Shown here: piece after piece, positions 2,650-61,941 of the stretch
How the letters are laid out: each line of letters begins with the position of its first letter
Numbering within the stretch: position 1 is the stretch's first letter
Origin: Squalus acanthias
Lineage: Eukaryota
DNA length: 64,000 bases
Assembly (NCBI GenBank): GCA_030390025.1
Contig: CM059431.1
Span: forward strand, 134,728,001-134,792,000
Direction: 5' to 3'
Position numbers and translations under genes: made by a program
Notes under the pieces: generated by a model
Databases searched by the model: none
What the model saw: only the letters and a program-made list of their open reading frames with translations
What the model was told of the DNA's origin: nothing

Positions 2650-3787
2650 TTATTGGAAGCGCTGTGTAATGAGGTGGTCACGAACGGCCCTTGCAGAACC
2701 AACATTGAGCGGCTCCCTCCTACATTGGTGCTGCTCCTCCTCCACTTCCTCCTCCTCCTCCGCATCCTCCTCCTCCTCTCCCTCTTCTTCCTCCTGAGGT
2801 GGACCTCCAATCCCTGGTGCCAATGGCTGGGCCCTCAGAATGGCCAGGTTGTGCAGCACACAACGATGAAAAGGGAGACTCGATCATGGGCGTACTGCAG
2901 GGCTCCTCCAGTGCGGTCAAGGCAGTGGAACCGTTGCTTTAGCACACCGATAGTCTGTTCGATCCGGTTCCTGGTGGCGCTATGGCTGTCATTGTATGCG
3001 TGCTGAGCTGGAGTGTTGTGGTTGCGGAGGGGTGTCATCAGCCAGGTGGCGAGTGATAACCCTTGTCTCTGAGCAGCCAGCCGTGAGCTTCATGTGATGG
3101 TTGGAACAGTGCTGGGACACCAGTCTGTCACAGGATGAAAACATTGTGGCTGCTGCCAGGATATCGGGCATTGACAGTCTGTGGTCGCACACCAACTGAA
3201 CGTTCAGAGAGTGGTAGCCTTTGCGGTTGCGGAACACCTCTGCATTGTGATGAGGTGCCCTCAATGCCACGTGGGTGCAGTCAATGGCGTCCTGAACTAA
3301 GGGGAAGTCCGCTATCCTTGCAAAGCCACATGAGCATTCATCCTGTTTCTCTCTGGTCATGGGGGAATGAGATGTACTCCCTTCTCCTTCTGTACAGAGC
3401 ATCTGTGACCTCCCGGATGCAGCAATGGACGGTGAACTATGAAATATTTGCAATATCCCCTGTTGAAGCTTGGAAGGAGCCGCTGGCGTAGAAATTGAGA
3501 GCGACTGTGACCTCAACTGCCACTGAGAGAGACGTCCTGGTCCTGAGCTGAGGCTGGAGTTCTGGCTGCAGGAGGTGGTAGAGCTCTGTGACCACCTTCT
3601 CGCTAAAGCGGAGCCTCTAAGGCACTGCTCCTCTGACAGATGAATGTAGGAGAAATGCTCCCGGGAGGGTAAGGCCTCTGTTGAGAGTCCTGTTGTCAGT
3701 CCTCCCTCTGGCCACGTTTTCCAATCTTTCTCTCTGCCTCCGACGGTGAAGCTGGAGGGCGAGGTCCCGTGCCAGTACAGCCCCCAT
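2650..3787 (-). pseudogene. Harbinger DDE transposase (HARBI1-like) pseudogene
   Basis: Fragments [27 protein letters not shown] and TRNRIEQTIGVLKQRF lie in different frames. Confidence 0.9.
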
Positions 3788-5084
3788 TAAGTGTTGGAAA
3801 TGTTGCAGTCAGACAAATGAACCTGATCATTTTTCTCAGGAGCAAAACTCCTTCAAGCAGGAAAACCTGAAATGGGTCAAAACGCCTGTCTGCTTCTGTC
3901 AAAGTGACAAGGCTGCATTGTTTGCCGACAAAAAAACCCAGGAAGTGCACGCCTTTAAATAACGTTCCTGCAGCTCCCAGCTGACTGCCAGCCGCCTCCT
4001 CTACCTGTCGTTGCTAACAGCAGGCGCTGAAAATGAATTTCTGGTCCGGGGCGCTACTGGGGCGATGCGCAGCTGGATGACGTAACGATCTCCGGGCGCA
4101 GGAGATCATGGCGGTCGTGTTTAGCGCCACTGCAAACCGCCAGGTGAATTTTGCCGGCAGCGCTAACATTGCCGTGCCCGGGAGGCGCTAACCAACCGAA
4201 TTTCTCCCTCAAAATTTAATGTGGCCAGGGTCCCTTTAAGGATCCCGGCTTAAAACGCGTCATGAATGATGTCACCAGACTCGCTCCATCTCATTGGGCC
4301 GGGTAACGCGCTGGGTGGGCTTAATAGGCTCTATTAAGGTAAGTTCATTTTCTACAGCGGGATGGAGCCAGTAGCGGGGTCGTGACCTGCCACGGACACC
4401 AAGGTAAGGAAAATTCCAAGTGTAGTTTTCAAGTGAAACAGGGTTAGAGGACAGAAGACAATTGGACTAGTACATGTAGATGTAATTTTGTTGCCATTTT
4501 AAAGTCATACATTTTGATCTTATTTTTATCTTTCCTTTATACGTTATGTCCATATTTATAATGGAAAATGCCTATGTAAACTTGTCACACTGTAATTACA
4601 CCCTCCTGCAAGTGGAAGAGTATGTAATTACAATGTGTCAAGTTTACATAGCCAGTTTCCATTTCAATGGACATAGGAAATTAGAATGGAAACAAATGAC
4701 AGAAAATGTAATATTTGTAGTATTACACTAGTTAATCCCATTACAACGGGGAGTCAAAACCAAAGATAGTCTTCAAGTTAAGTGGGATTACAGGGTGGCA
4801 GATAACTGGACCAGGGCATGCAGCTATAATTCAATCCCCATTTTAAAGTTCTGCATTCTCACATCTGTATTTCCAATATAAATTCCTATGCCTGCATTTA
4901 TAAAGGAAACTACCCATCTAAAATTGACATTCTCTGTCAGTGGTGGTACGTCTTCATGCCCCCTGCTAACCTCTCTTCAGTATGTACTGCTTTAGCTGCA
5001 GGTAGGCAACTCACTATCTTATAGGTGTTGTCTTTACGATACGCATGGCTATCCACTTTCCGAAGCAAAGACTTCCCTACGACT

Positions 5085-10229: not shown

Positions 10230-10655
10230 TGCTAATCATAGCCCTTGCCACCCAGTAGCCACGCTCTAGTTTGCCGGTGTCTCAAATGCAAATGGGACAG
10301 CGGACTGCCGCAGAATGAAGGCATCATGACTGCTGCCAGGATATTGGGCATTGAGCTGCATGATTCACTTCGTATGGTCACACACCAGCACATGTTGAGG
10401 GAGTAGAATTCCTTTCGGTTGTGGAGTTGACGCGCGGCGCTCGCAAAGCGACTTGCGTGCAGTTAATGGCACCCTGCACCATGGGGAAGCCTGCAATCCT
10501 CGCGAAGCTGTGTGCTCGCTCCGCCTGCTGGTCTCCGGCAAGAGAAAATGAAATGTATTCAGCTCTCTTGGAATACAGAGACCTCCCTTATGCAACAGTG
10601 GACGGCAAACTGGGAGATGTTGCAAATATCACCTGCTCCAGCCTGGAAGGAACCC
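10230..10655 (-). pseudogene. Harbinger transposase internal fragment
   Basis: Minus strand reads FARIAGFPMVQGAINCTQVALRAP, homologous to 59012-60163. Confidence 0.8.
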
Positions 10656-11243
10656 GACACCTAAATGTTTATGGACACAGTGGGAACAGTGATCACAGTA
10701 TCATAAGGTTTAGATTAGCTATGGAAAAGGACAAGGAGCAACCTAGAGAGATTGGGGAGAGATAGAAAGAGGGACTGGGGAGAGAGAGAGAGAACAATCT
10801 AGAGTAAAAATACTTAATTGAAGGAGGACCAATTTCAGTGTGTTGAGAGCAGATCCGGCCCGGGTAAATCGGCCTCTTACACTGTTCCAACGAGGCTCAA
10901 CGTAAGCTCGTGGAACAGCACCTCATCTTTTGATTAGACATTTACAGCCTTCTGGACCCAACATCGAGTTCAACAATTTCAGATCATAACCTCTGGCCCC
11001 ATTTTTTCAGATGGCAGCTGTTGATGATACTGCCATTCCCATTTACACCTCTTCTAGACTCATCTTTTGTTTTTTAACTTGTCCCATTACTATCTCCTTT
11101 TGCCTTGCACCATCATCCTTTTTGTGTTTTAATCTCTCCTGTCTTCCACCTGATCACAGACCATCACTTTTGTTCTTTCCTCCCCTCCCCCCTTCCCCTG
11201 CCCCTGCACTTGCTTAAAATCTGTTACATCTCGAACTTTTTCC

Positions 11244-36186: not shown

Positions 36187-36970
<784 letters not shown>

Positions 36971-43282: not shown

Positions 43283-43748
43283 GGGCTGGATTTTCATTGA
43301 CCCGTGGAGGTGGGTTTGGAGGCGTGTGGGGGGTTAAAGTTGCAAAAACTGGCGGGCGGGCACAAGTCCGCCTCCATCCCGCCTCCACGCAATTTTCATT
43401 AAATTGTGTCTGCTGGTCCCGACTCCGTCCCGCCTTTAAGAGACGGGATAGGCTGTTAAGGTCCTTAACAAGCACTAAATTGCCTCTATAATGCCATTTT
43501 GAAAGGCCTTTGTGATTTTAACCCTTGATCTACGTGACGCACGCCTGTTTTGAACCACGATTGTGAAACCTGGCGGGAGCACATTTGGATAGCTGACTAT
43601 CAGCTACAGGTCCACTATTACAACGGAGATGTGATGAAGGTAGTAGTCGTATTAGGTCTGAAAGTCGCCTCTGATGCTGCTGCTGCATTGAAGGTCTTCG
43701 GAGACTGCCTGGCCTTTGCTGTGAGAGGACCTGGATGCAAAATTAATT

Positions 43749-43780
<32 letters not shown>

Positions 43781-44061
43781 GCCAGCAGACTTAGGGCTGC
43801 TGCTGCTCATTTCCCATCCAGGTCCTCTCACAGCAAAGGCCAGGCAGTCTCTGACCTTCAATGCAGCAGCAATGATGACATCATCAGAGGCGACTTTCAG
43901 ACTGAAAACACTAATTGGTTCATGGATTCCCACATGCTGGAACTCAATTGCCCAATTAGGTGAAAATTGCATCAATCTCCCACATCCAATTGCAGTTGGG
44001 TGCATAACACGAAATGCGGATGACACGATCCCCAATCCGCCCCAGTATCAAAATCCAACCC
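43283..44061. mobile_element. Harbinger MITE (family B), inverted relative to 36187-36970, inside a Penelope remnant (about 43248-44170)
   Basis: TIR gggctggatttt / aaaatccaaccc, TSD GTT/GTT. Confidence 0.9.
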
Positions 44062-46009: not shown

Positions 46010-46827
46010 GGGCTGGATTTTGCCAATAGGGAGCTTTTGGAGGTGGGACTCCCACTTGTCGGGTTTCAATCCCGCCTCCATCAACTTCTGGCCAACCCAC
46101 GCTATTTTTCCTTGATTGACCTTGTTAAGCCCGCCCAGTGGGCTTAGCAGGCCAATTACGGGAAAGCCGGTTGCAGAGAACGTCAACGTATGACGTTTCA
46201 TCTGTCAAAAATTTTTGACAGATCAATTGTCATCATTTAACAGCTCTGTGAAGCTGTCAAACACTGACATTCTCTGTAGTTTGATGAGTTCTTGAATTCA
46301 AGACCTCATCAAACCTCTTTCCTTTGCAGAAATTAGATGGTTGTTGCATTGGAGAATGCAACAGCCATCTGTCATCTCTGCCGTGGAGGTGCGAGACTCT
46401 CCGCATACCCACCGATTGAAGCCTGCAGGAAGAAAGAAAGGTAAGTACACTTTTTCTAAGACTTTCAACTTACCTCAGATACTCACCTCTCCACACTTGC
46501 ACCCATCACTTACCTTCACAGCGCACTTTTGGACCCCTCCGACCCCCGCAGACCCACTACTCGCCTCGGTGACCCTGGTGGGTTTTGGAGCCTTTGGGAA
46601 GCCCGCACTTGTGTGGGCAAAATGGGGATAATCCTCTTATCTGCCTGTTAACTACCTGTTAACTAGCTGTGGCTGTAATCCCTTCCCGCCTCCAAGGAGA
46701 CGGGACCCTGCGCGGGACGGCTACCCGCCCCCTGGCAAGATGGCATGGGGGCGGGTTGGGCACCCATCCCTAGATTCTGCCATTTTCCCGGCAGTCCCGC
46801 CTCCCCAAGGCTGGCAAAATCCAGCCC
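46010..46827. mobile_element. Harbinger-type MITE (family C)
   Basis: Perfect 16-bp TIR GGGCTGGATTTTGCCA, TSD TAT/TAT. Confidence 0.92.
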
Positions 46828-47200: not shown

Positions 47201-50200
47201 AGGCTGGATTTTGATTCAGGGGCGGGCTGGGGTCGTGTAATCCGCATTTCGTGTTAGCCACCCGAATCTAAATCGATGTGGGAGATTGATGTGATTTTAA
47301 CATAATTGGCCAATTGAGTTCCAACGTGTGGGAACCCATGGCCAGTGAGTTTTTCCAGTCTGAAAGTCGCTTCCGATGACGTCATCATTACTGCAGCATT
47401 TAAGGTCTGCAACAAGCCTTGCTTCCTCTGCAGACTGCCAAGCTTCTGCCTTTGCATGTTAGAGGCACCTGCAGGAAGAATGGCCAGCCAGAGACCTAGG
47501 TCTGCACCTCGATTTGATGACGTCGCCCTGCAAGCTTTAATTGAGGGAGCCAGAGCTAATAAGGAGGTGCTCTTCCCTTCTTCAGGGAGGAAGAAGCCTT
47601 CCCATCAAACCAAGGCTGTGTGGATCCAGGTGGCAGAGGAGGTCAACTCGTTGTCCATAACCCGCAGAACCTGGCTTCAGTGCAGGAAGAGGTTTCATGA
47701 CCTGCTGCGCACTGGAAAAGTGAGTATGAATTTCCCATCACCCTCATTCTGATCCCCATTGCCTCTCCTCACCAGCACTCAGCTTTGACAACCTCTTCCT
47801 CCACATCCCACTTGACACTGACATCCCTGCACCCTTACCCATTCCCTCTCTCTGTATGGTCACATTCACCTAACTATTTGACTATGCAGCCCTCACACTC
47901 CCTATCGCTGTGATGCTATGAAAACAACTTACAACACACAGGGAGGGCCCATGGTCTTGCCACCTCACTTCGAATTTGTCTCCTTCTAACCATCAATGAT
48001 ATAGATTCTCTACACTCACTCCTTCATTCTCACTCAAACTCCACTTGTCTCCCTCATTGCAGGAAAAGAGAGCTTACAATAAGAGGGAAAGAGCGAGGAC
48101 AGGAGGAGGGCCACCCTCAGTAGCCCAGCTCACCCCCTGGGAGGAGGCGGTCCTGGAGATCATGGGAGAGGAGGAGGATGCGCAAGTGGGGGACGGACAG
48201 ACGGGTGCATCAGAGCAAGCTGGTGACAGAATAGTTTATCACCTCTCTCTTTGACATTGCATGAGTCACTGATAATGATTCTGATGCTCCAGCAGACTGA
48301 CTTATGATCATCTGCAATATGCAATGTGCATGTAACCTTGGACTCACATCTCTGACTCTTTCCTTTACTCCCCCCCAGGACCATCGCGAGCAGCCGTCCC
48401 CACCGTCCAGGAGGAAGAGCATGAGCCTCACCACTCCTCAGAGGAAGCTGCAACCTCTGAGGGCACCGCGTCAGCAGAATTCAGCACACCCAGCACCAGC
48501 GCAGACACTCACACCTCGGAGGGAACATTGCGAGATGGAGTAGTGTTGTCACCTGGTGTATCACAGCTCACAAATGAGCATCAGCAGATAGTGGAGACAG
48601 GGACAGCAGTGGAGAGTCCTAGTCGGAGGGCGCAGGACTCTCCTAGCTTGGCTCAGCTGCATGTCGACCCTCTGCCTCTGGGTCCATCCATAAGATCAGC
48701 GGTGCTGGAACTCCAGGAACAGATGCAGGAGTCTCTGGCAGGTTTTGTCTCCAGGGTCGCTGCGAGTGTGGAGTGAATGGAGGAGTCCATAGCGAACATG
48801 AGCAGAGCCTTTGTGGAGTCATTGGCGCATGAACGCATCACCACGGAAAGGATGGCAACCTCTGTAGAAAGGATGGCTACAGTAGAGGAGAGGATGGCTA
48901 CGGCTATGGAGGAGATAAGTCGCCAGAGTGTAGAAAACATGGTCATTGTTCAGAATAGACTGGCATCTCTTGAGGAGCGATGGTCATCTATTGAACACAG
49001 AAACCAGACCTTCATGGAAGTCCTTCTGAGTAGGACTGCCAGTGCAGATACGGATCCCCATGGCCCCCCTGATGTGCAGCAAGGTGCTCTCAATCCACTT
49101 GCAAGCGCTGAGGTGGGGCTGACCCATGAGAGGGATGTTGGTGGCAGACAACAAGGAAGTGGGGGCTCCTCTCCAAGCGCTCACACGACCAAGCCACTGT
49201 AAAGCCCTCGGTCAGAGCCCCACCAGAGTCCTCACCCAACTGAGATCGGCGTCTCAACCACTGCACAGCTGCAGGAACAGCAGACTGTTGCCAAGCCCTC
49301 ACAGGCTCGCAACCACAGAGGACGCCCGCCAAAGGTGTCGAGGCAGGAGCAGCAAGAAAGTGAGCAAGGGGCCTCCACATCTGCTGAAGCCACAGGGGAA
49401 GCACCACGTAGGAGCATGCGTAAAAGAAAAATAATGCACAAGTAGTCACAAGGGTAGTCACTTGGGTGTAATGTTGTGTTTAATCTTGAAATGCCAGCAC
49501 TTGCTTGGTGTGATTAAAAATTCTGTTGGCAAACTGCTGAAGTTGTGGAGTCTGTCATTTCGCAAATGGGACTTCCACATTGAGGGCTAATGATGACTTG
49601 CAATTGTCAGTATGGTGGTCAGAGTGATAGGAATCCACAGGTTCCTGGCCATTGTCGATGGTCTGATAAGAAGGTGCGAGGCAAAAGTGTTTGATTGTGC
49701 AGGCTAAGCAAATCTGGTCAAGTGCGTCCCTTGCATCTCGGGCTGCAATGTGGTCGCGCGCTGGCGCCTTCTGGCCTGTGCAGCTTCAGGTGGGTGAGGA
49801 GCAGCTTGGCACTCCTGTTGATGCTGCTGCTGCTGGTGGTGCTGTTGTTCATGGTTCTGCTGCTGCCACGGCTGGTCTTCATCCGAATCTGATGTCCAGG
49901 AGGAAAGGAAATAAATGGTTTCCATGCTTCTGGTATATGCCTCAGTTGAGGAAGCGCTCAGTCAAGGTGGCGAGAGGGGTTTCCCATGAGGTCACACTGG
50001 AGATGGGTGTCAGGCTCCAAACTTCCACAGCTGTGGTTATGCCCTATAAAAGTTCCCCCAGACCTCAGACAACAAAGTCCTGCCAACTGCAAATGATGGC
50101 TGATCACATCTCCTATTTCATGGTTGAGCTGCAGCTGATAGTCAACAATCCAAATGTGCTACCGCCAGGTTTCACATTCGTGGTTCAGGTGTGCTTCACG

Positions 50201-50450
50201 TGGAAAAAGGGTTAAAATCACAAAGGCCTTTCAAAATGGCATTATAGAGGCAATTTAGTGCTTGTTAATGGCCGTAACGGCCTATCCCACCTCTTGGAGG
50301 CGGGACGGAGTCGGGACCAGCAGACACGATTTAATGAAAATTACATGGAGGCGGGATGGAGGAGGGCTTGTGCCCGCCCGCCAGTTTTCGCAATTTTAAC
50401 CCCCCACACGCCTCCAAACCCACCTCCATGGGTCAATGAAAATTCTGCCC
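47201..50450 (+). mobile_element. Myb-only Harbinger element (family B), transposase core deleted
   Basis: TIR aggctggatttt / aaaattctgccc. Carries a 3-exon Myb gene. Only N- and C-terminal transposase-like stubs remain at about 49704-49925. Confidence 0.85.
47480..49445 (+). pseudogene. Harbinger Myb/SANT-like gene, exons 47480-47719, 48063-48222 and 48379-49445 (488 aa), with two nonsense codons
   Basis: APRFDDVALQALI...W...QCRKRFHDL. GT-AG introns of phase 0 and 1. TGA at 48774 and TAA at 49200, no frameshift. Has ERMAT heptads, RGRPPK and a basic C-terminus. Confidence 0.85.
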
Positions 50451-50633
50451 AAGGGCATAACACAGATTTTATTGCTGGAGCTGTTCAAATAATTAACTGC
50501 TATGCAAGAATTTATTTTTGATTAAATTCATAGTTTACAACTAGTTAATGCACCTTACTTTCTAGTTAGTACTAAATTAAATTTTAAAAATATTTGTCGC
50601 AGTTGCCTAGATTCATGGCAAAGACAGACCTAC

Positions 50634-50694
50634 CTTTTGATTTGCCTCAATTTCATTTCTCATTTCCTGGTTTACAACTATTCTTGTCAGCGAT
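50634..50694 (-). CDS. UGGT2: UGGT coding exon, 61 nt: (R)SLTRIVVNQEMRNEIEANQK
   Basis: Minus-strand acceptor ttcccacag and donor gtaggt. Peptide matches recalled human UGGT2 SLTRIAVNQHMREEIKENQK. Ends in phase 0 and joins the next exon in frame. Confidence 0.9.
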
Positions 50695-51579
50695 CTGTGG
50701 GAAAAATTCAAATAAACATTTTTGAAACAGACATTATATGACGTTCATTTTTTCCACTCTGAAATTTTCCCTTTTTTGTAGCCATGTCTTACACTAACTT
50801 TAATGCTGCAGCTCTATTCTCTGCCCAGAGAAGGTGATTTCTCTCTATTGGCAGTCATTTAAATCTTGTGTAGCAAGCAAATGGATATGACTGGATTGTA
50901 ATAACACAAATCCAAATACAAATGAGAGAACCTGTAAACATGGCTTTACGCAGAGTCAGCATCTGGTTCCCAAGACAGTGTAAGGATCGGATGGCAGAGT
51001 GCGTTCTGGGCATGTTGTTATAGCAAATGCATCATTCCCATCAGCTCTTCAATTCTGCCCTGATACTGCATGAGCTGCTGTTGTGAATCATATGACTGAA
51101 TTTAATGAAAAAAGTTTGTCATCAGCGATAACCTACTCTACTCACATAGCAGTTTTTAAGACTTTTGTTTCCATGGGTGCGAATACATGGAGCGACTATT
51201 ATTTCCATCGTATCATGAAAGGTAACCTTTATTTTTGTTATCAAGTTGTTTTAAAATTTACTTGTAGTTTTAAGCTTGATTTTGTGTGCCATGGTATTTG
51301 TTTCATCTGTGTGCTTGTTTTTGTAGGAGGTGGTTGGATATCATTCTTTCGGGAGTAAAGGAGTATTGGCAATTTAATATAAAATAAACAATAAGGGGAA
51401 ATGTCAAATCATAGAAGGATGACATTTTATGTTACGTGTAAGTGTTGATGTCATATTTTCTCAACAAACATCAACTGTGATATGTGTTAATAAAATAGCA
51501 CAAATATATTGCTTAACATTTTGTAACCACCGATGGTACTCTCTTAATGAATTTACATTTTTACTAAGAATATATTATT

Positions 51580-52120
51580 GGTAATAAAAACAGAAAATGC
51601 TGAAAATACTCAGCGGGTCAGGCAGCATCTGTGGAGAGAGAAACAGAGTTAACGTTTCGGGTCGATGACCCTTCGTCAGAATTGGAAAAAGTAAGAGATG
51701 TAACAGATTTTTAAGCAAGTGTAGGGGCAGGGAAAGCGAAGAGGGGTGGAAAGAACAACAGGGAAGGTCTGTGATAGGATGGAAGGCAGGAGAGATTAAG
51801 AGACAAAAGGGATGATGGTGCAAGGCAAAAGGAGATGGTAATGGGACAAGTTAAGAAACAAAAGATGACTCCAGATGAGATGTAAATGGCAATAGCAGAA
51901 TCATCAACAGCTGCCATGTGAGAGAAAAAAAATAGGGGCCGAGGTTATGGTTTGAAATTGTTGAACTTGATGTTGAGTCCAGAAGGCTGTAAAGTGCCTA
52001 ATCGAAAGATGAGGTGCTGTTCCTCGAGCTTAAGTTGAGCTTTGTTGGAACAGTGTAAGAGTCACTTTAATTCTCCGCTCCACTCCCACTCTGATCTCTC
52101 TATCCTCAGTCTCTTACACT
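51580..52120 (-). mobile_element. Penelope-like element 3' remnant with an inverted 5' piece (about 52061-52120)
   Basis: Minus strand reads LLHCSNKAQLKLEEQHLIFRLGTLQPSGLNIKFNNF, a GIY-YIG C-terminus. Homologous to 10870-12187. Confidence 0.82.
51647..51683 (-). ncRNA. Minimal type I hammerhead ribozyme motif (uninterrupted)
   Basis: AATT CTGACGA A GGGTC atc GACCC GAAAC GTT AACT: core, 5-bp stem II, palindromic AACGTT stem III, stem I with one mismatch. Confidence 0.75.
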
Positions 52121-52828
52121 GGAGGGAGTCAGAGCATGCAGGGAGGTTCTCTTTCCTTCCCTTGGGTGAAAGAGACCTCCCCAGGAGACCAACACAGCCT
52201 GGTTGCAGATTGCAGAGGAGGTCACAAGCAGGGATGTGGTCAGGAGGACCCAGGTGCAGTGCCGCAAACGTTTCAATTATCTCATTAGATCAGGAAACGT
52301 TAGTACAAAGCCATACTCAACTGCATCCTGCTGTGCCTCTCATCACATCCCCATCACTCTTCCTTCCCTACCCTACCCCTGCACATCCTTACTCACACCA
52401 ACATACTTTGCATGTCCACCCATCCCTCTCTATCTACATTATCACATCCCCATCTCACTAGCCACCCCTCACACTCACCCTCATCCTAGTGCAATCAGAC
52501 CAACTAACAACACACAAGGGTAGCCACTTGGGTGCTTTATCCAATGTTTATGTAAAGTTTCTGTTAATGTGGTGTCAAACATTAAAATCTTTATTTTCAA
52601 CACTTTCCGGTCTTGGACAGATTTGTGTGCACCTTTGGAAGTGGCTTAGTGAGTTGCAGTGAATGGTGAGACATAACGGTACCCCCCGCAATGGGGATGA
52701 GTGTGAAAGGAATGGCTTGGTCATTGTAGGAATGCTTTATGGTGTTGGTGTGGGATGATGCCAATCTGGCGCATCATGTGGCAGCCATATGGGTGTACAG
52801 CGTAAAGTTAACTAAATCTGGCCACGAT
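52121..52828 (+). mobile_element. Left part of a decayed Myb-only Harbinger
   Basis: QIAEEVTSRDVVRRTQVQCRKRFNYLIRSG on plus. Transposase stop region IVARFS* on minus at about 52808-52828. Confidence 0.72.
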
Positions 52829-55800
52829 GGGAACTTGGGAAAATAAAATGGACAGAAAATATTGGCAAACAATGACGTAGAACAGCAATGGGAAACATTT
52901 AAAACTGTGTTTAACAGAGTCCAGGAAAAATATATTCCGCTAAAAAACATGAACAAGCTAAACACTAATAAGAACATAAGAAATAGGAGCAAGAGTAGGC
53001 CATATGGCCCCTCGAGCTTCAATAAGATCATGGCAGATCATCAACCTCAACTCCACTTTTCTGCCTGATCTCCATATCCCTTGATTCCCCTAGAGTCCAA
53101 AAATCTATCTATCTCAGCCTTGAATATACTCAACGACTCAGCATTCACAGCCCTCTGGGGCAGAGAATTCCAAAGATTCACAACCCTCTGAGTGAAGAAA
53201 TTCCTCCTCATCTCAGTCTTAAATGGCCTACCACTTATCCTGAGACTGTGCCCCCGAGTTCTAGACACTTCAGCCAGGGGTACAAAATCTCAGCATCTAC
53301 CCTGTCAATCCCCTTCAGAATCTTGTATGAGACACCATGGATGAATAAAGCCATAAGGGAAAAATTGACGGTAAGTAAAGAGGCATACATTAAGTACATG
53401 GACAATAGGGGACAGCATGTTGAGGGAAAATATGAAGAGATTAGGAAAGAAGTCAAAAAAACAATTAGGAAGGCAAAGAGGAACTATGAAATTAAATTAT
53501 CAAGGAACATAAAACAAAATAGTAAAATATTTTACAGGCACATCAATAAAAAAAGGAAGGTCGGGATGAGAATAGGGCCACTAAGGGATGGAAAGGATAA
53601 TACCACAGGCAGTGATAGAGAGACAGCAGAAATATTAAATAATTACTTTGCCTCAGTATTTACCAGAGATAGAACATTGGATCATGAGATTAGTAATGAA
53701 ATAACTGCATTTAAAATAAAAATAGGAGATATATTAAATAAACTAATCAAACTCAAGGAGGAGAAAACCCCTGGTCATAAGAACATAAGAAATATGAGCA
53801 GGAGTAGGCCATTTGGCCCTTCGAGCCTGCTCCGCCATTCAATAAGATCATGGCTGATCTTCTACCTCATCTCCACTTTCCTGCACTATCTCCATATCCC
53901 TTGATTCCCTTAACATTCAAAAATCTATCGGTCTCTGTCGCTGGGCCAAAATCCTGGAACTCCCTACCTAACAGCACTGTGGGAGTACCTTCACCACACG
54001 GACTGCAGCGGTTCAAGAAGGAGGCTCACCACCACCTTCTCAAGGGCAATTAGGGATGGGCAATAAATGCTGGCCTTGCCAACGATGCACACATCCCATA
54101 AGAACGAATTAAAAAAATGATCACTGGAATACCCTTGTAATTGCGCCTCTAATTTCTTGCTTTATACTCTGCCCTACATTACAACTACTGTTTGGGGGTC
54201 TATAAACAACTCCTACCAATGTTTTCTGCCCCTTGCTGTTTCTTAGCTCCACCCAAACTGATTCTACTTCTTGATTTTCGGAGCTAAGATCCTTTCTCTC
54301 TACTGTCTTTATCCCATCCTTTATTATCAGGGCTGCCCCATCTCCATTTCATTTTGCCTACCTGTTTTAAAAGTTAAGTAGCCTGGAATATTTAGTTCCC
54401 AACCTTGGCCACTTTGCAACCACGTCTCCGTAATGTCTATTAGATCAAACCTGTTCATTTCTATCTGCGCTATTAATTCATCTATTTTGTTGCGAATGCT
54501 TCGCGCATTCAGATATAATGCCTTTAACTTTGACTTATTTCTATTTTTCACTGATGTCACCTTCGTCACGAATGTTACTCTCTTTGTCCCTTCCTGACCC
54601 ACTCTGCTTATTCTTACCCAAAACTCTACTCTGCTCTAGAGCCTTAACATTTCTCTCGCTGCTTTTAAATTTACTCTTTCCTGAATCCTCCTACCACCCC
54701 CCCTTCATTAGTTTAAAGCCCTGTCTACTGTCCTAGTTATTCGGTTCGCTAGGACACTGGTCCCAGCCCGGTTTAAGAGGAGCCCGTCCCAACAGAACAG
54801 CTCCCTCTTTCCTCAGTACTGGTGCCAGTGCCCCATGAATTGAAACCCCTTCCTCCCACACCACTCTTTGAACCACGCATTTAAACCTCTAATCTGTTTG
54901 TCCCTATGCCAATTTGCACGTGGCTCAGGTAACAATCCAGAGATTATTACCTTTGAGGTTCTGCTTTTCAATTTGGATCCTAGCTCCTCAAACTCCCTCA
55001 GCAGAACCTCATTCCTAGTACTACCTATGTCGTTGGTTCCCACGTGGACCACGACAACTGGATCCTCCCCCTCCCACTCCAAGTTCTTCTCCAGCCGCGA
55101 GGAGATGTCTTTATCCCTGGCAGGCAACACAACCTTCGGAACTCTCGGTCGCGGATGCAGAGAACAGACTATACTGTCCCCGACCACAACTACATTCCCT
55201 TTCACTCCCCCCACTTGAATGGCCTCTTGCAGCATGATGGCATGGTCAGCTTGCTCATCCATCCTGCAGGCTTTTCCCTCATCCACACAGGCAGCAAGAA
55301 CCTCATACCTGTTGGACAAGGGCAAAGGCTGAGGCTCCTCCAGCACTGCACCTGGGGTCCCCTTACCTGCCTGAGTTGCAGTCACACCATCCTGTCCCTG
55401 ACCACTAACCAGATCTGTACCATTACCTAACCTAAGGGGTGTGACTGCCTCCTGGATCAAAATGTCCAGGTAACTCTCCCCCTCCCTGATGCCCCGCAAT
55501 TTCTGCACCTCAGACTCCAGCTCAAAAACTCTGAGCTGAAGTTCCTCAAGATGCAGGCACTTACTGCAAACGTGGTTGTAGTCCAGATGGATTACATCCA
55601 CGCATTTTAAAAGACTCTAGGGAAGAGATAGCAGAGGCATTACTACGCATATTTAATAATTCATTATAAAAATGAATAGAAAGTACTAGAGGACTGGTGG
55701 ATAGCTAACATAATACCTATATTTAAGAAGGGAGATAGAACATATCTAGGCAACTATAGACCAGTCAGCTTAACATCGGTGGTAGGAAAAATAATGGAAT

Positions 55801-56535
55801 CCCTACTAAAGGGGAAAATGGAAGAACATCTAGAAGCCAAAAATATAACAATGAATAATCAGCATGGATTTCAAAAGGGAAAGTCTTGCTTGACCAACCT
55901 CATTGAATTTTTTGAAGAGCTAACAGTAATTTATCTAGATTTTCAAAAGGCCTTCGATAAAGTACCGCATAATAGACTAATGAATAAGGAGTCAGGGGAC
56001 AAGTAGCAGAATGGATAGCTAGTTGGCTTCAAGACAGAAAGCAGATAGTAAAGGGTAGCTATTCAGAGTGGCAGAAGGTAGGTAGTGGTGTTCCACAAGG
56101 ATCAGTGACCACTGTTGTTCACAATTTATATTAACGATTTAGACTTTGGAATCAAAAACACAATTTCTAAATTTGCGGATGACACCAAATTGGGAGGGAT
56201 AGTTAATACTGAGGAGGACTGCAACAAATTACAGGAAGACATTAATAAACTTGCAGAATGAGATATAATTGGCAAATGAAATTCAACAGATAAGTGTGAG
56301 GTATTACATTTTGGTAGGAAGAATAGTGAGGTCACTTATTACATGGAGGGTGCGAGTCTGGGTGGGGTAGACGAGCAAAGGGAGTACAAATATACAAATC
56401 ACTAAAAGTAGCGACACAAGTTAACAAGGCCATAAAACAGCAAACTAGGCACTAGGGTTTATTTCTAGACGGATAGAATTGAAAAGTAGTGAAGTTATGC
56501 TAAACTTGTATCGAACCTTGGTTAGACCACACTTG
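52829..56535 (+). mobile_element. CR1 ORF2 remnant with nested LINE fragments (minus 3' ends at about 52969-53328 and 53777-53935, plus tail at about 53935-54118, minus ORF1/endonuclease at about 54118-55590)
   Basis: Plus-strand ORF2 pieces (EQQWETFK, PWMNK..., NYFASVFT, YLDFQKAFDKV) in correct order around the inserts. Minus ORF 54813-55601 is a CR1 ORF1. Confidence 0.82.
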
Positions 56536-56893
56536 GGGGGAAAAATTAGGTCGCGCCCCGTTTGGGGCGCAAATATCGTCTGGACGCAAAAATTAGCACC
56601 TGGCGCTAATTATCGCCACTGACTGGAAACTTCACTTTTACCGCCCCGGGAGGTGAGTGGAGCGCTAAATCAGGCGCTGCACACCTGTCTTAAGGCGCAA
56701 AGGCCGAGCAGTGAGGCGCTAACTCAGCGCACGAGCGCAGCGCAGGTGCTGCCAGTTAGCGAGGGAACACAGACACACTGGCGCCGGCCAGTTCTTAAAG
56801 CGGGGGGGCCAACTTGCTCCCCAGCCACACCCTGCTCATTGCAGCCTTGAATCTCGGCCTGGAGAGACCTGTGAATCCATTTTGCTGCCAAGG

Positions 56894-58699
56894 ATGGAGA
56901 GGGTGAGAGAAGGAGCTCAGCGCTTCACCGAGCGGGCCTTGGATGCTCTGGTTGGCGCGGTGGAGCGCAGAAGATCTATACTCTTCCCTGAGAGTGGCAG
57001 GAGGCCTTTGCCACGCGAGTACAGAAGAGTGTGGAGGGAGGTGGCTCAGAGCGTCTCCTCCAGGAGCATGGTGCCCAGGACCCATGTTCAATGCCGCAAA
57101 AAGTTCAACGACCTCACTCGGGTCGTCAGGGTGAGTGGCTTTTTCTCAATACCTCTCCATCCCTCCATCTCAACCTCACTCTATGGCCAGAGGGTCTTAA
57201 AACCCCAATGCACAACACTCATCCAACACCTATGGCCCTTTCATGAAACACACACACACATTCCACACTTTGCATACAGTAAGGGCTATTCACCTATGGG
57301 AGGTACATCAGGCAAGACCATGGCTGCATACAGTAAGGGCTATTCACCTATGGGAGGCACATCAGGCAAGACCATGGCTGTATATTTACTCAGATGCTGT
57401 CCTTTTTCTTGCAGGCCAAGCTGGCGCATAATAGGAGACAGCAGCAACGGACAGGTGGAGGGCGGCCTCAGCGATCTTGAGGAGCGCGTCCACAGGATTG
57501 TGGCAAGCCGGGTGATCGGTCCCGTCGCCACTGGAGACGCCGACCCCGTTCTGGACAGCAATGGTAAGGTCATCACCTTTTTGTCCTCTGTCCTTTTACT
57601 TGTCCCTCACAACACCAGCCTTTGACACTTTCAATCCAACTTGCTAACTCGCTGCACTTATTCCTCCCTTACTGCCACCCTGTCCTCACGCTAAAGCCAC
57701 TCTTGTACCTCCCTGCTTTCAGATGGTGATTCACCAGCTGAGGAGACGGGCCCTGAAGCTGCCACTGGGAGTGAAGCTGCAGCCGAGGAGGAAGAGGAAG
57801 CCGGAGCATCAGTGCCACCCTCTCCCGAGGAAGCCCATGCCCACACTGGGAACACGCCTTCCCTGGAGGGGAGCAGGGGGGAAGGGTCTGATGAGGGTGA
57901 AGCTCCAGGACCCAGCGGGCTGCAGCAACGCCATGGGGGTAGGGAAGAACGGGGGCCTTCTCCCCAGAGGGAGAGTATGCCAGCGACTCCTACTGCAATG
58001 GACGCAGAGGAGGAGCGGCTGATCGCAGAAATGAACACCCAGGCGGTGGGCATGCACACTGAGCTCATGGGTGCAGTGGGAAGGGTGCCCGAATGCATTG
58101 AGTCACTGGCAAGGAGTGTGGAGCACTTCGCTGTAGCACAGGCGGATGCCACACTAAAGCTTAGTGCTGCAATTCAGTCACTGACTGCCGTGATCCCATC
58201 TCTGACTGCTCTCATGCAGACTCAGATTGAGGCCACGCGAGCACTGACTGCTGCCAACCTCGATGGTTCGTTCACATGTCCCCGGGGCTCTCACCGCGCC
58301 GCAGCAGGCCAGCAATCTGTGCTCCAGCAGATTGCTCCGGATGCTGAAGTGCTGCCCCGTGGGAGTGCCAGTGTGTCGGTCGAGCAGGAAGTTGCTGTCC
58401 TCTCTCACGATGACAGCATTCCTGCTGCCAACACTGTCACTTCTCCACTGCACTTGCCACCGCCTGTAGGACAGACTGCTGCCGCCCATGCAGAGTTGGT
58501 GCAGTCTGCAGCCGGGCCCTCCAGGCCCAGAACTGGTCGAGGCCGTCCTTCAGGGGCATCTGCAGTGTCAGGGTCTGACAATCTGCAGCCTTCCACCAGC
58601 CTTGCTGCAGCCACTGAGGTCCCATTACGGAGGAGCAGTAGGGTTAGAAGGGGGGAAGTGCGCAAGGGAAGGAAATCACCCTCAAAGGGCAAAAAGTAG
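56894..58699 (+). pseudogene. Harbinger Myb/SANT-like gene, exons 56894-57130, 57415-57563 and 57723-58699, frameshifted in exon 2
   Basis: Canonical splice sites. Exon 2 lacks about 14 nt relative to the copy at 935, giving TGA at 57478. Confidence 0.85.
57271..57380. repeat. 54-bp tandem duplication in Myb intron 1
   Basis: tgcatacagtaagggc... starts at both 57271 and 57325. Confidence 0.92.
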
Positions 58700-59011
58700 G
58701 AGGTGTGACAAAATGCTGGTAATTTTTTTATTAAAGGCCGAGGTTCGTGGTCCAACTTTTGTCTAGTGTTTTGGACATTATCTCCAGGTTGTGAGAACCA
58801 GTTATGTTAATGACTGTTTTTTTGTGTTTATTTCTATGAGTTTGTCATGAGGAAATGACACACACAGAGTTTGTAAAATAAATAAGTTTTTGTATTCAAA
58901 ATATATATGTTTGGTGTTTGGAATCATTGGTGCCTTGGCCGGCTTAGGGGTTGCGTGCTGCGTTCATTGATGTTGTTAGCAATGGCAGAAGCCATTTCCA
59001 CAGCAGGGGCC

Positions 59012-60163
59012 CTAGAAGCGGCTTGCTATCAGCCGTTGACGGACGGCCCTTGCAGTTTCACCATTGTGGGCCGCCCTCCCGCCTTGTTGCTGCTGATGAT
59101 CATCCTCCTCGTCCTCTTCCTCCTCCTCCTCTGGTGGTGCTCCAAGGCCTGGTGGCATTGGCTGGGTCCTGACGATTGCCATGTTATGCAACATGCAGCA
59201 CACAACTACGAAGTTGGATACTCGCTCAGGCGAGTACTGCAGGGCTCCTCCAGAATGGTCGAGACAGCGGAACCGTTGCTTCAGCACGCCGATTGTGCGC
59301 TCAATGATGTTCCTGGTAGCTTGATGGCTCTCGTTGTACCGCAGCTCAGCAGGGGTGTTGGGCATATTGAGCGGTGTCATCAGCCAGGTGCTCAATGGAT
59401 ACCCCTTGTCCCCGAGAAGCCAACCAACTGGCTGATGCGGTGCCTCGAAAAGTTCTGCCACAGTAGTCTGGCGCAGGATGAAAGCATCGTGGCAGCTGCC
59501 AGGATAGTGGGCATTGACAGCGAGTATCAGCTGTCTGTGGTCACAGACCAACTGAACATTCAAGGAATGGAACCCCTTTCTGTTCCGGAATTCCTCGGCA
59601 TTCTCATGTGGAGCACGCAAAGCCACATGCGTGCAGTCAATGGCGCCCTGCACCATGGGGAAGCCCGCTATCCTCGCAAAGCCCAGAGCGCGGTCACGCT
59701 GCTTGTCTGGGGTCATGGGGAAAGAGATGAACTCTCGTCTCCTTTTAAAGAGGGCATTTGTGACCTGCCGGATGCAGCAATGCACCGCGAACTGGGAGAT
59801 ATTGGCGAGGTCCCCAGCAGCAGCTTGAAATGAGCCAGTAGCATAGAAGTTGAGAGCCACTGTGACCTTCACTGCCACCGACAGAGACGTCCTGGACCTC
59901 AGTTGAGGCTGCAGATCTGGCTGCAGCAGGTGGCAGAGCTCAGTGACCACCTCCTTGCTGAATCGCAGCCTTCGCAAACACAGCTCCTCAGACAAATGAA
60001 TGTAGGAGAGCTGTTCACGATATACCCTGGGAGGGTAAGCTCTCCTGCACAGACGCCTGTTGGCCCTCCTCCGTCTGGCCATCATTGCCACTCTCTCTCT
60101 GCGTCTCTGTGTCCTCCGATTCAGCTGGAGCAGGACGACACCCCCATTCAGTGCAGCCCCCAT
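59012..60163 (-). CDS. Intact Harbinger DDE transposase, 383 aa (HARBI1-like)
   Basis: ATG at 60163 and an uninterrupted frame. Contains an HTH region ([16 protein letters not shown]), GAIDCTH, HDA, LLGDKGY and RNIIERTIG. Confidence 0.93.
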   Translation of the reverse strand: MGAALNGGVVLLQLNRRTQRRRERVAMMARRRRANRRLCRRAYPPRVYREQLSYIHLSEELCLRRLRFSKEVVTELCHLLQPDLQPQLRSRTSLSVAVKVTVALNFYATGSFQAAAGDLANISQFAVHCCIRQVTNALFKRRREFISFPMTPDKQRDRALGFARIAGFPMVQGAIDCTHVALRAPHENAEEFRNRKGFHSLNVQLVCDHRQLILAVNAHYPGSCHDAFILRQTTVAELFEAPHQPVGWLLGDKGYPLSTWLMTPLNMPNTPAELRYNESHQATRNIIERTIGVLKQRFRCLDHSGGALQYSPERVSNFVVVCCMLHNMAIVRTQPMPPGLGAPPEEEEEEDEEDDHQQQQGGRAAHNGETARAVRQRLIASRF

Positions 60164-60678
60164 AGTCTCTTTGCAAGCAAAGTTATGAAGGACAGCAACC
60201 AAAGTACCAGCGAAGTTAGGATCAGAAGGCAAAACTACCTCACAAAGCGTTGACTCAATGCAGAAGTCTCTCTTTCTCTCTCTCCGAATCTCTCTCTCTC
60301 TCTCAGAACGAGTGGTGCAAAAATGTCAACCACAGAAAAAGACAGGAAGAGGCCCCCTTTAAATAGCGCCCCCCCCCCCCAGCCCCACAGCGATTGATAG
60401 CGTTCCAGTCTTCTGGTCGTTGGATGCGCCAGGCGGTAAGGCAGGGGGCGCCACTCAATTTCCGCTCCGGGGCGCCACAAGGGCGTTGCACCATGGAATG
60501 ACGTCACAATCTGCGTGCGCAGGTGGTCGCAGCGGTAAAGTTTAGCGCCGCCGCTAAATGTCCAGTTAAGTTCCCGAGCGGCGCAAACATCACTGCGCCC
60601 AGGCGCTAGCTGCTTTGCGCCCCATTAGCGCCCTCTTAAGGCGCTAACGGGAGGCGCAACCAACTGAATTTTTCCCCC

Positions 60679-61242
60679 TTGGAGTACTGCGTACAATTCT
60701 GGTCGCCATATTATAAAAAGGATATAGAGGCGCGGGAGAGGGTGCAGAGAAGATTTACAAGGATGATACCAGAAATGCAAAGGTATACCTGTCAGGAAAA
60801 GATGAACAGGCTGGGTCTCTTTTTGATTGAAAAAAGAAGGCTGAGGGGTGACCTAATTGAAGTCTTTAAAATTATGAAAGGTTTTGACAGAGTAGATACA
60901 GAGAAAGTGTTTCCACTTGTGGGGAAGAGCATAACTAGAGGTCATCAATATAAGATAGTCACCAAGAAATCAAATATGGAATTCAGAAGAAACTTCTTTA
61001 CCCAAAGAGTGGTGAGAATTTGGAACTCGCTACCACAGGGAATAGTTGAGGCAAATAGTATAGGTGCATTTAAGGGGAGGCTAGATAAGCATATGAGGGA
61101 GGGAGAAGGAAATAGAGGGTTATGTTGATAGAATTAGATGAGGAAAGACGGGAGGAGGCTCGAGTGGAGCATAATCGCCGGCATGGACTGGTTGCGCCGA
61201 ATGGCCTGTTTCTGTGCTGTATATCCTATATAGACCTATGTA
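60679..61242 (+). mobile_element. 3' end of the CR1 interrupted by the Harbinger
   Basis: LEYCVQFWSPYY... plus 3' UTR and tail. Confidence 0.9.
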
Positions 61243-61941
61243 ATCCCTGGCCTTTCGGGCAGCAATGAGCTCAGGTACTGATGCCCTCTGTCCTGTGCAG
61301 CATCAGGTGATTGTGGAGAAGGTTGGTGTTGTTGTTGGTGCTGTTGGTGTGCCTGGTGCTGCTGGTGTTGGGGCTGATCGTGGTCCAATTCTGAGGACGA
61401 AGATGCGACAGTATAAACGGCACCACTGTTGATGGAATAGATGGCAGGTGAAGTACAGATGACAGAAACATTCTGTCAATGGTGATCGAGTTCTTCCAAT
61501 GAGGTGAGACTGGATGGAGACTTTGCTGGAAAGACTTGCAGCCTGCAGAATCTGTGCTGGGAATGGACTGAGCAACAACTTCTGCCTGAGGAAAGTGATG
61601 ATCTGTCAGGTGGGAGCTTTTACTGTACATTTGATGCTGTCAAGCAATGGCCACGGAACTCCCGCCTCAGGTTGACAGACGTGGATCCCGAGCTGCGTGA
61701 ATCCCATGGGCATTCAGGGAATTTAAAAAGTAAGTGAAAAAAGATCTAAAATGCCTGTAAACTACCTGATAATGATTTCAATTGGGTCTGGTCGGGTCGG
61801 ATCCGCGATGACAGACGCGCCTGGGGGAAAGGCGCGTGGGGGCGGGATGATGGTGGGTTCCCGAACCGTTGTCAAAAATAACAACTTCCCCACCCGACCT
61901 GCCACCGATCGCGCCTGCTACCACCCCGGAAAATTCCAGCC
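61243..61941 (+). mobile_element. Right part of the Myb-only Harbinger begun at 52121
   Basis: Aligns with 49727-49925 (Q/H-rich stub). Ends in TIR-like gaaaattccagcc. Confidence 0.7.

Follow-up and report, generated by a model that had tools for sequence, protein, structure and literature searches.

Myb-retaining, transposase-deleted Harbinger elements of Squalus acanthias: a probably re-housed deletion scar and one breakpoint used by two families

We analysed a 64,000-nucleotide stretch of Squalus acanthias DNA (GenBank assembly GCA_030390025.1, contig CM059431.1, positions 134,728,001 to 134,792,000 of the forward strand; hereafter the window, numbered from its first letter), together with a search of the 3.7-Gb genome, for two PIF/Harbinger transposons, elements A and B, which lack the transposase core at the same position. 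The deletions in families A and B are separate events at homologous microhomologies, and the scar carried by element A has probably recombined into an element resembling the transposase-bearing subfamily F2 and then been copied in trans by F2-type transposase. An initial annotation of the window had read elements A and B as one old lineage that preserves its Myb gene and borrows a transposase; what has lasted is likely the scar itself rather than a single ancient lineage devoid of the enzyme.

Element A and its copies

The features of element A are listed below, with strand in brackets where one applies.

47201..50450: element A, a 3.25-kb transposase-deleted, Myb-retaining Harbinger (family DW), with terminal inverted repeats (TIRs) GGGCTGGATTTT / GGGCAGAATTTT; target AAA/AAG here
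47480..47719 (+): Myb exon 1, Myb/SANT DNA-binding domain (PF13873, Myb_DNA-bind_5, E=2e-9), F2-type
48063..48222 (+): Myb exon 2, predicted splice sites (GT-AG boundaries and an open consensus frame)
48379..49445 (+): Myb exon 3, with private stops at 48774-48776 and 49200-49202; family consensus open, 488 amino acids (aa)
49430..49904: scar cassette, comprising Myb stop, shared 3' untranslated region (UTR), transposase tail, junction and stub; on the right, a putative crossover lying between 49905 and 50032
49704..49757 (-): C-terminal tail of the transposase, marked by a 5-nt loss peculiar to the family
49758..49763 (-): A junction at the microhomology CAGCGC, where 1,018 nt of the transposase core are absent
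49764..49925 (-): Q/H-rich N-terminal stub of the transposase, about 55 codons counted from the ATG (tblastn with F2 transposase aa 1-52)

As the initial annotation had described, the three Myb exons of element A join into 488 codons with two nonsense codons (266 and 408) and no frameshift. Four contig sets presumed to be RNA-derived showed no splice joint at the predicted Myb introns, these sets being uninformative on expression. Short TIRs, a 3-bp target-site duplication (TSD) and a Myb/SANT gene identify element A as a PIF/Harbinger, and a DDE_Tnp_4-type transposase is present in its family, the F2 consensus open reading frame (ORF) being 62% aa identical to the transposase (PF13359) of element C, another Harbinger in the window.

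Twenty close copies of element A have the identical 3.25-kb plan, TIRs and 3-bp target duplications, and a perfect 3-bp TSD, mostly W-N-W, was found in 33 of 38 scorable A-type copies. The flanks and TSDs of DW copies are distinct while the junction is common to all, indicative of amplification after transposase loss. The DW consensus retains the whole Myb ORF, open over 488 aa, and the early description of A and B as non-autonomous, multi-copy Harbingers, with an open Myb consensus in A, was borne out. A DW marker pattern, at the right end, matched 231 deleted copies versus 7 core-bearing ones; examined as candidate autonomous parents, these 7 proved to be F2- or F3-like or more distant, with none DW-like along the whole element.

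Additional observations concern the insertion sites and the occurrence of A-type sequence. The A-type sites (loci L031-L050 and L201-L220) show an extended palindromic target of about GAxxC-WNW-GxxTC, as symmetrised by the script, several A-type copies occupy the same site of one repeat, and sequence words of element A occur in sequencing runs of nine organisms, with no RNA run listed among them.

The deletion junction and transposase-bearing relatives

The stub is the N-terminus of the transposase, because in full copies it continues into RRRYPxxRVYR and then the DDE core, so that the Q/H-rich stub first recognised in element A is what it was taken to be. A pattern joining the stub to the RVYR motif gave 2,225 genome matches of both A and B type, whose translations read through a full DDE transposase; therefore both families have transposase-bearing members, and copies with a complete core, for which the initial annotation had recommended a search, are abundant in each. 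The transposase tail lay 1,012-1,068 nt downstream in 19 of the 30 stub-to-core matches examined. The stub-to-tail junction pattern gave 7,761 matches, and among the 100 listed, 21 were A-type and 79 B-type, with identical anchor spacing across the junction in 99; breakpoints are thus alike among these copies, as the early reading expected.

Relative to the F2 consensus, which measures 4.31 kb and has an open transposase, 1,018 nt are deleted, and CAGC(A/G)C stands at both deletion ends in both parent families. Elements A and B align across the junction without a gap, as had been noticed at the outset, with 42 of 55 nt identical. The joining of stub to tail stands, but the two do not form a single reading frame, since a deletion of 1,018 nt puts them out of register, and in element A the extra 5-nt loss sets the final RFA and its stop out of frame with IAARDARDAL. 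In DW (49704-49925, minus strand) the 5-nt tail loss and the 1,018-nt deletion add to 1,023 nt, restoring the stub frame to the natural stop, probably by chance. Splicing was rejected as the cause of the deletion, inspection of the junctions having found neither a GT-AG nor a GC-AG boundary on either strand, and a hairpin joining the two breakpoints was set aside as well, its duplex energy ranking an unremarkable 159 of 306 for F2 and 78 of 306 for B.

Family A as a mosaic

In the whole-element tree, from which rows with fewer than 1,500 aligned bases were dropped, 20 of the 21 listed A-type junction loci interleave with 14 full A loci. With CpG sites masked, DW and F2 are 0-7% different outside the cassette and 14% different in the interval 2250-2500, where DW is 2% from the deleted subfamily D4 and 6% from D2; the ends of DW are 14-24% from those of the older deleted groups. 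Painting of DW by informative sites switches at about 2230 and again between 2705 and 2832, DW being F2-like at the left end, in Myb and at the right end, and like the older deleted subfamilies in the stretch that runs roughly between the Myb stop and the start of the transposase.

Segment trees (rows with less than 60% cover dropped) gave the same partition. A clade of all deleted copies was rejected for the left end, Myb and the right end (log-likelihood difference, delta lnL, 221, 223 and 166; approximately unbiased (AU) test, p 2e-64, 8e-5 and 0.03), and a clade of DW, F2 and F3 was accepted for all three segments, whereas for the cassette the DW+F2+F3 clade was rejected (p-AU 0.003) and the all-deleted clade was not rejected (p 0.10). 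Furthermore, a derived GAC beside the junction is common to A-deleted copies and absent from full copies, and the junction bases of F2 differ from those of DW. By these comparisons, the DW cassette of about 0.5 kb appears to come from older deleted subfamilies and the ends and Myb from F2-like autonomous elements, and the evidence supports a junction that is shared at base level and older than the window's own family. D3 and D4, one copy each, are other mosaics.

Between subfamily groups, divergence amounts to 14-24% in the ends and in Myb exon 1 and to about 1-13% in exon 3, as if ends and DNA-binding domain formed a specificity module that changes as one. At L184 / L134 (G000:C1:22.12 Mb) and L042, Harbingers lie inside or next to others of their kind, an arrangement that would supply substrates for recombination.

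Element B and its stepwise loss of Myb

Element B is split in the window as follows.

52120..52829: element B, left part, with Myb exon 1 remnant, a piece of intron 1, second junction, 3' UTR and last tail codons
52830..61242: nested insertions splitting B, which we take to be repeats resembling long interspersed nuclear elements; the flanking parts correspond to consensus B 1-726 and 732-1445, 5 nt of B being absent where it is interrupted
61243..61941: element B, right part, with tail, junction CAGTAC (61275-61280), stub and right TIR GGCTGGAATTTT

In the window's copy the left end is missing, as are about 20 codons at the start of Myb, and its second deletion junction lies at about 52512-52534, in a ~20-nt repeat. 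The family measures about 1.8 kb, Myb being reduced to exon 1 and part of intron 1. Among 45 B-deleted loci, the second junction was present in 38, 7 were unscorable and the Myb stop was found in none, so that all 38 scorable loci lack exons 2-3; the initial impression of a nearly intact Myb in both elements holds for A and fails for B. As read from the consensus, the loss of exons 2-3 sits at a ~20-nt repeat common to intron 1 and the 3' UTR. A separate group of B copies retains Myb, with 223 further matches carrying both the B junction and the Myb stop; the 20 of these that were fetched follow a ~3-kb, three-exon plan, with 6 of the long form, 12 in which 244 nt of exon 3 are missing and 2 unscored. 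Family B has shed Myb in steps, and its commonest form keeps the least of the gene. A lone fragment of a B-family left end, 93% identical to the consensus, lies at 4212-4400.

Separate deletions in families A and B

Right up to the 6-nt microhomology, and on both of its sides, A-deleted copies carry A-type bases and B-deleted copies B-type bases. A tree of the junction flanks groups copies by family, the deleted copies of A and of B each falling with the full copies of their own family, and a single clade of deleted A and B copies is rejected (delta lnL 191, AU p=0.0003); row L143 was left out of this tree, and row L042, which had taken in a B-type copy from its flank, is mislabelled there, with the constraint unaffected. 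Because the flanks group by family and the single deleted clade is rejected, the A and B deletions are separate events. A common ancestor of both would require crossovers within 6 nt on both sides of the junction.

Proposed course of events and alternatives

From the structure of the elements, their copy numbers, the mosaic pattern, the family-specific flanks and the presence and similar age of F2, we infer that the A scar would have arisen once, within family A, at the CAGC(A/G)C microhomology, and that it would then have been re-housed several times, either gap repair or gene conversion being the mechanism and the crossovers falling in conserved stretches close to where Myb stops and the transposase begins. 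The resulting shorter elements, with up-to-date ends, could then amplify, DW being copied in trans by F2-type transposase. In family B, a deletion of its own at the homologous microhomology would have led to a 3.2-kb Myb-retaining stage, from which one branch may later have lost 244 nt of exon 3 and the dominant 1.8-kb form exons 2-3. F2 is the likely source of transposase for DW because its consensus transposase is open and its copies are similar in age (median divergence from consensus 1.66% in 21 DW copies and 1.89% in 20 F2 copies, in each case the copies most similar to the query, a choice that biases ages downwards). The abundance of same-family transposase copies leaves little to the earlier suggestion of a transposase borrowed from another family. 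Likewise, the proposal that Myb was kept through long independence is not supported, since that of A appears to derive from F2-like autonomous elements and B shed its own in steps; in A the gene would for the most part be carried along as a passenger and renewed from autonomous relatives, with a helper role possible.

Several observations, the age bias among them, weigh against this course of events. Myb is free of stops and indels in only 2 of 23 DW copies, with one more carrying an in-frame 21-nt loss, and no stop interrupts the Myb consensus ORF in D1, D1b or D2. D3, D4 and D5 are known from one copy each and the other old subfamilies from 2-6. No autonomous parent of DW was found closer than about 4-5% outside the cassette, in agreement with the initial annotation, which had treated near-identical autonomous copies as evidence against an old lineage. 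The changes unique to DW (its stem branch) number 9 silent and 8 replacement, omega (the dN/dS ratio) 0.28, a spectrum that differs from site counts (p=0.009) and from the copy-private spectrum (p=0.04); given this branch and the lack of a close autonomous parent, selection may have acted on Myb once the deletion had occurred. At the junction, 333-390 microhomology pairs of at least 4 nt exist between the stub and tail regions, so that use of the same site twice exceeds chance, and the GAC variant fixed in A-deleted copies also occurs in many B-deleted copies.

The Myb data could instead reflect a helper lineage in which family A keeps Myb under purifying selection, binding its own ends and recruiting F2-type transposase. 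The DW stem branch with its 9 silent and 8 replacement changes speaks for such a lineage, as do an omega of 0.10 between DW and F2 in the first 110 codons, the divergence in step of ends and exon 1 between subfamily groups, the Myb-like protein of Harbinger3_DR, which binds ends and recruits transposase (passages of PMC2836001), and the publication of a MADF-only family (sections of PMC13668399). However, the stem branch perhaps represents an unsampled autonomous lineage, or was autonomous over part of its length, and changes unique to D2 (9 silent against 20 replacement, with omega 0.70 and p=0.24) show no such departure. Pooled deleted branches, with 20 silent and 28 replacement changes (p=0.06), are indistinguishable from autonomous ones with 16 and 14 (Fisher p=0.36), and family B is most abundant after losing Myb exons 2-3. 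The dN/dS check proposed initially gave a divided answer, since copy-private changes have an omega of about 0.7, the same as in autonomous copies (0.73 in DW, 0.67 in F2), and represent decay after insertion, while the DW stem has the low value given above. These results hint at selection on Myb following the deletion, and we consider a helper lineage unlikely.

As to the junction, the single transposase-less ancestor of both A and B initially proposed, living on a foreign transposase, would account for the identical junction position, but it is highly improbable in view of the AU test, the family-diagnostic bases that adjoin the junction, the existence of same-family transposase partners, and the different TIRs and 62% transposase identity of family C. 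That every A subfamily was instead deleted independently at a hotspot, with the scar never transferred, fits the interleaving of deleted and full subfamilies in the whole-element tree, and A and B show that the site can be struck twice; the 14% distance of the DW cassette from F2 (interval 2250-2500) and its older-subfamily bases at nearly all informative sites nonetheless render this explanation very unlikely. The breakpoint common to A and B may reflect a conserved hotspot between a tract rich in CAG and one rich in GAG, or else loop repair on a template. In the latter, the A scar would have served as template for the B junction, or vice versa, through repair of a heteroduplex loop, the deletion crossing between families without flanking bases. 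Use of one site by two families despite hundreds of other microhomologies, the distribution of GAC (fixed in A-deleted copies, frequent among B-deleted ones) and the frequency of recombination within family A favour such templating, whereas the A and B flanks are only about 76% identical, foreign bases are absent beside either junction, and Myb-keeping B copies are mostly GAG, so that GAC looks like a later parallel change; we regard templating as improbable. Similarly doubtful is a broader version in which the scar acts as a long-lived parasite of the family, like a defective interfering genome, that survives one autonomous subfamily after another because it recombines into new ends and Myb, keeps Myb as a selected end-binding adaptor and has crossed about 25% family divergence by loop-templated repair.

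Other Harbingers in the window

Element C and its transposase occupy the following positions.

56536..60678: element C, a young autonomous Harbinger of another family; TIR GGGGGAAAAATT, TSD TTG
59012-60163 (-): open transposase of element C (PF13359, E=1e-39), 62% aa identity to the F2 transposase

All 30 fetched loci of family C are colinear over the core, and 20 of the 30 have an open transposase frame of at least 430 aa. On the ground of this colinearity family C was rejected as a donor or a third deleted family, the query having favoured window-like copies, so that deleted C derivatives could be missed. An attempted splicing of the element C Myb broke the frame after exon 1, through either mutation or wrong boundaries.

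Two MITE-like (miniature inverted-repeat transposable element) elements of ~780 bp at 36187-36970 and 43283-44061 carry ends of the A family, at 84-90% to those of A and F2, and flanks that resemble a 3-bp TSD. An element of ~820 bp at 46010-46827 has GGGCTGGATTTT TIRs, a TAT target duplication and a different interior, and decayed transposase fragments from other Harbinger families lie at 2850-3640 and 10238-10711.

Comparison with known systems

The usual expectation is that a non-autonomous DNA transposon dies out together with the autonomous subfamily from which its ends come. The scar described here apparently outlives subfamily turnover by recombination, which would be one way of persisting for long, and a helper gene that stays intact in a deleted element is not necessarily a sign of selection. 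The series of family B forms (full, Myb-only, partly deleted, exon-1-only), together with the twice-used breakpoint, constitutes a large natural data set on the shrinkage of a two-gene transposon. No report of scar transfer between Harbinger subfamilies was found in the literature searched, which was mostly without subscription journals or Repbase.

The comparisons that follow draw on passages of the reports cited. Harbingers require both proteins, of which the Myb-like one binds the ends (PMC2836001). [quoted passage not shown] Harbingers were not found in the elephant shark, according to the passage concerned (PMC9179366).

The nearest likenesses are other Harbingers without transposase. Harbinger-1M_cIno and Harbinger-2M_cIno of Caenorhabditis inopinata (PMC13668399) are likewise amplified, MADF/Myb-retaining, transposase-less PIF/Harbinger elements for which a transposase in trans was inferred. 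That system comprises 19 MADF-only elements of 258, with a single intact DDE locus, and is currently active, whereas here hundreds to thousands of copies coexist with many same-family autonomous ones; a swap of the scar cassette between subfamilies, seen here, is not described in the available sections of that report. The solo-ORF variants of Harbinger-Snek in sea kraits (PMC8437027) are also multi-copy, DNA-binding-protein-only vertebrate Harbingers, with 452 intact in L. colubrina, and were ascribed to large deletions; transposase-only variants dominate there, and the passages available contain no analysis of breakpoints, recombination or selection.

Other superfamilies offer parallels to the separate steps. 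In recombinant Mutator elements of maize (PMC10401008), diverged subfamilies likewise swap their ends as well as internal genes by recombination, and the products transpose, although the swapped unit there was TIRs with mudra/mudrb and here it is a scar gaining new ends and Myb on both sides. The Ozma MITEs of Aedes aegypti, from a mosquito mariner (PMC3814204), likewise show internal deletions at microhomology founding non-autonomous families, with three families and differing breakpoints (6-8 bp) there versus two families and one homologous 4-6-nt site here. The Myb-only Harbinger form itself is thus already published; less ordinary in the present case are the re-housed scar and the breakpoint used by two families.

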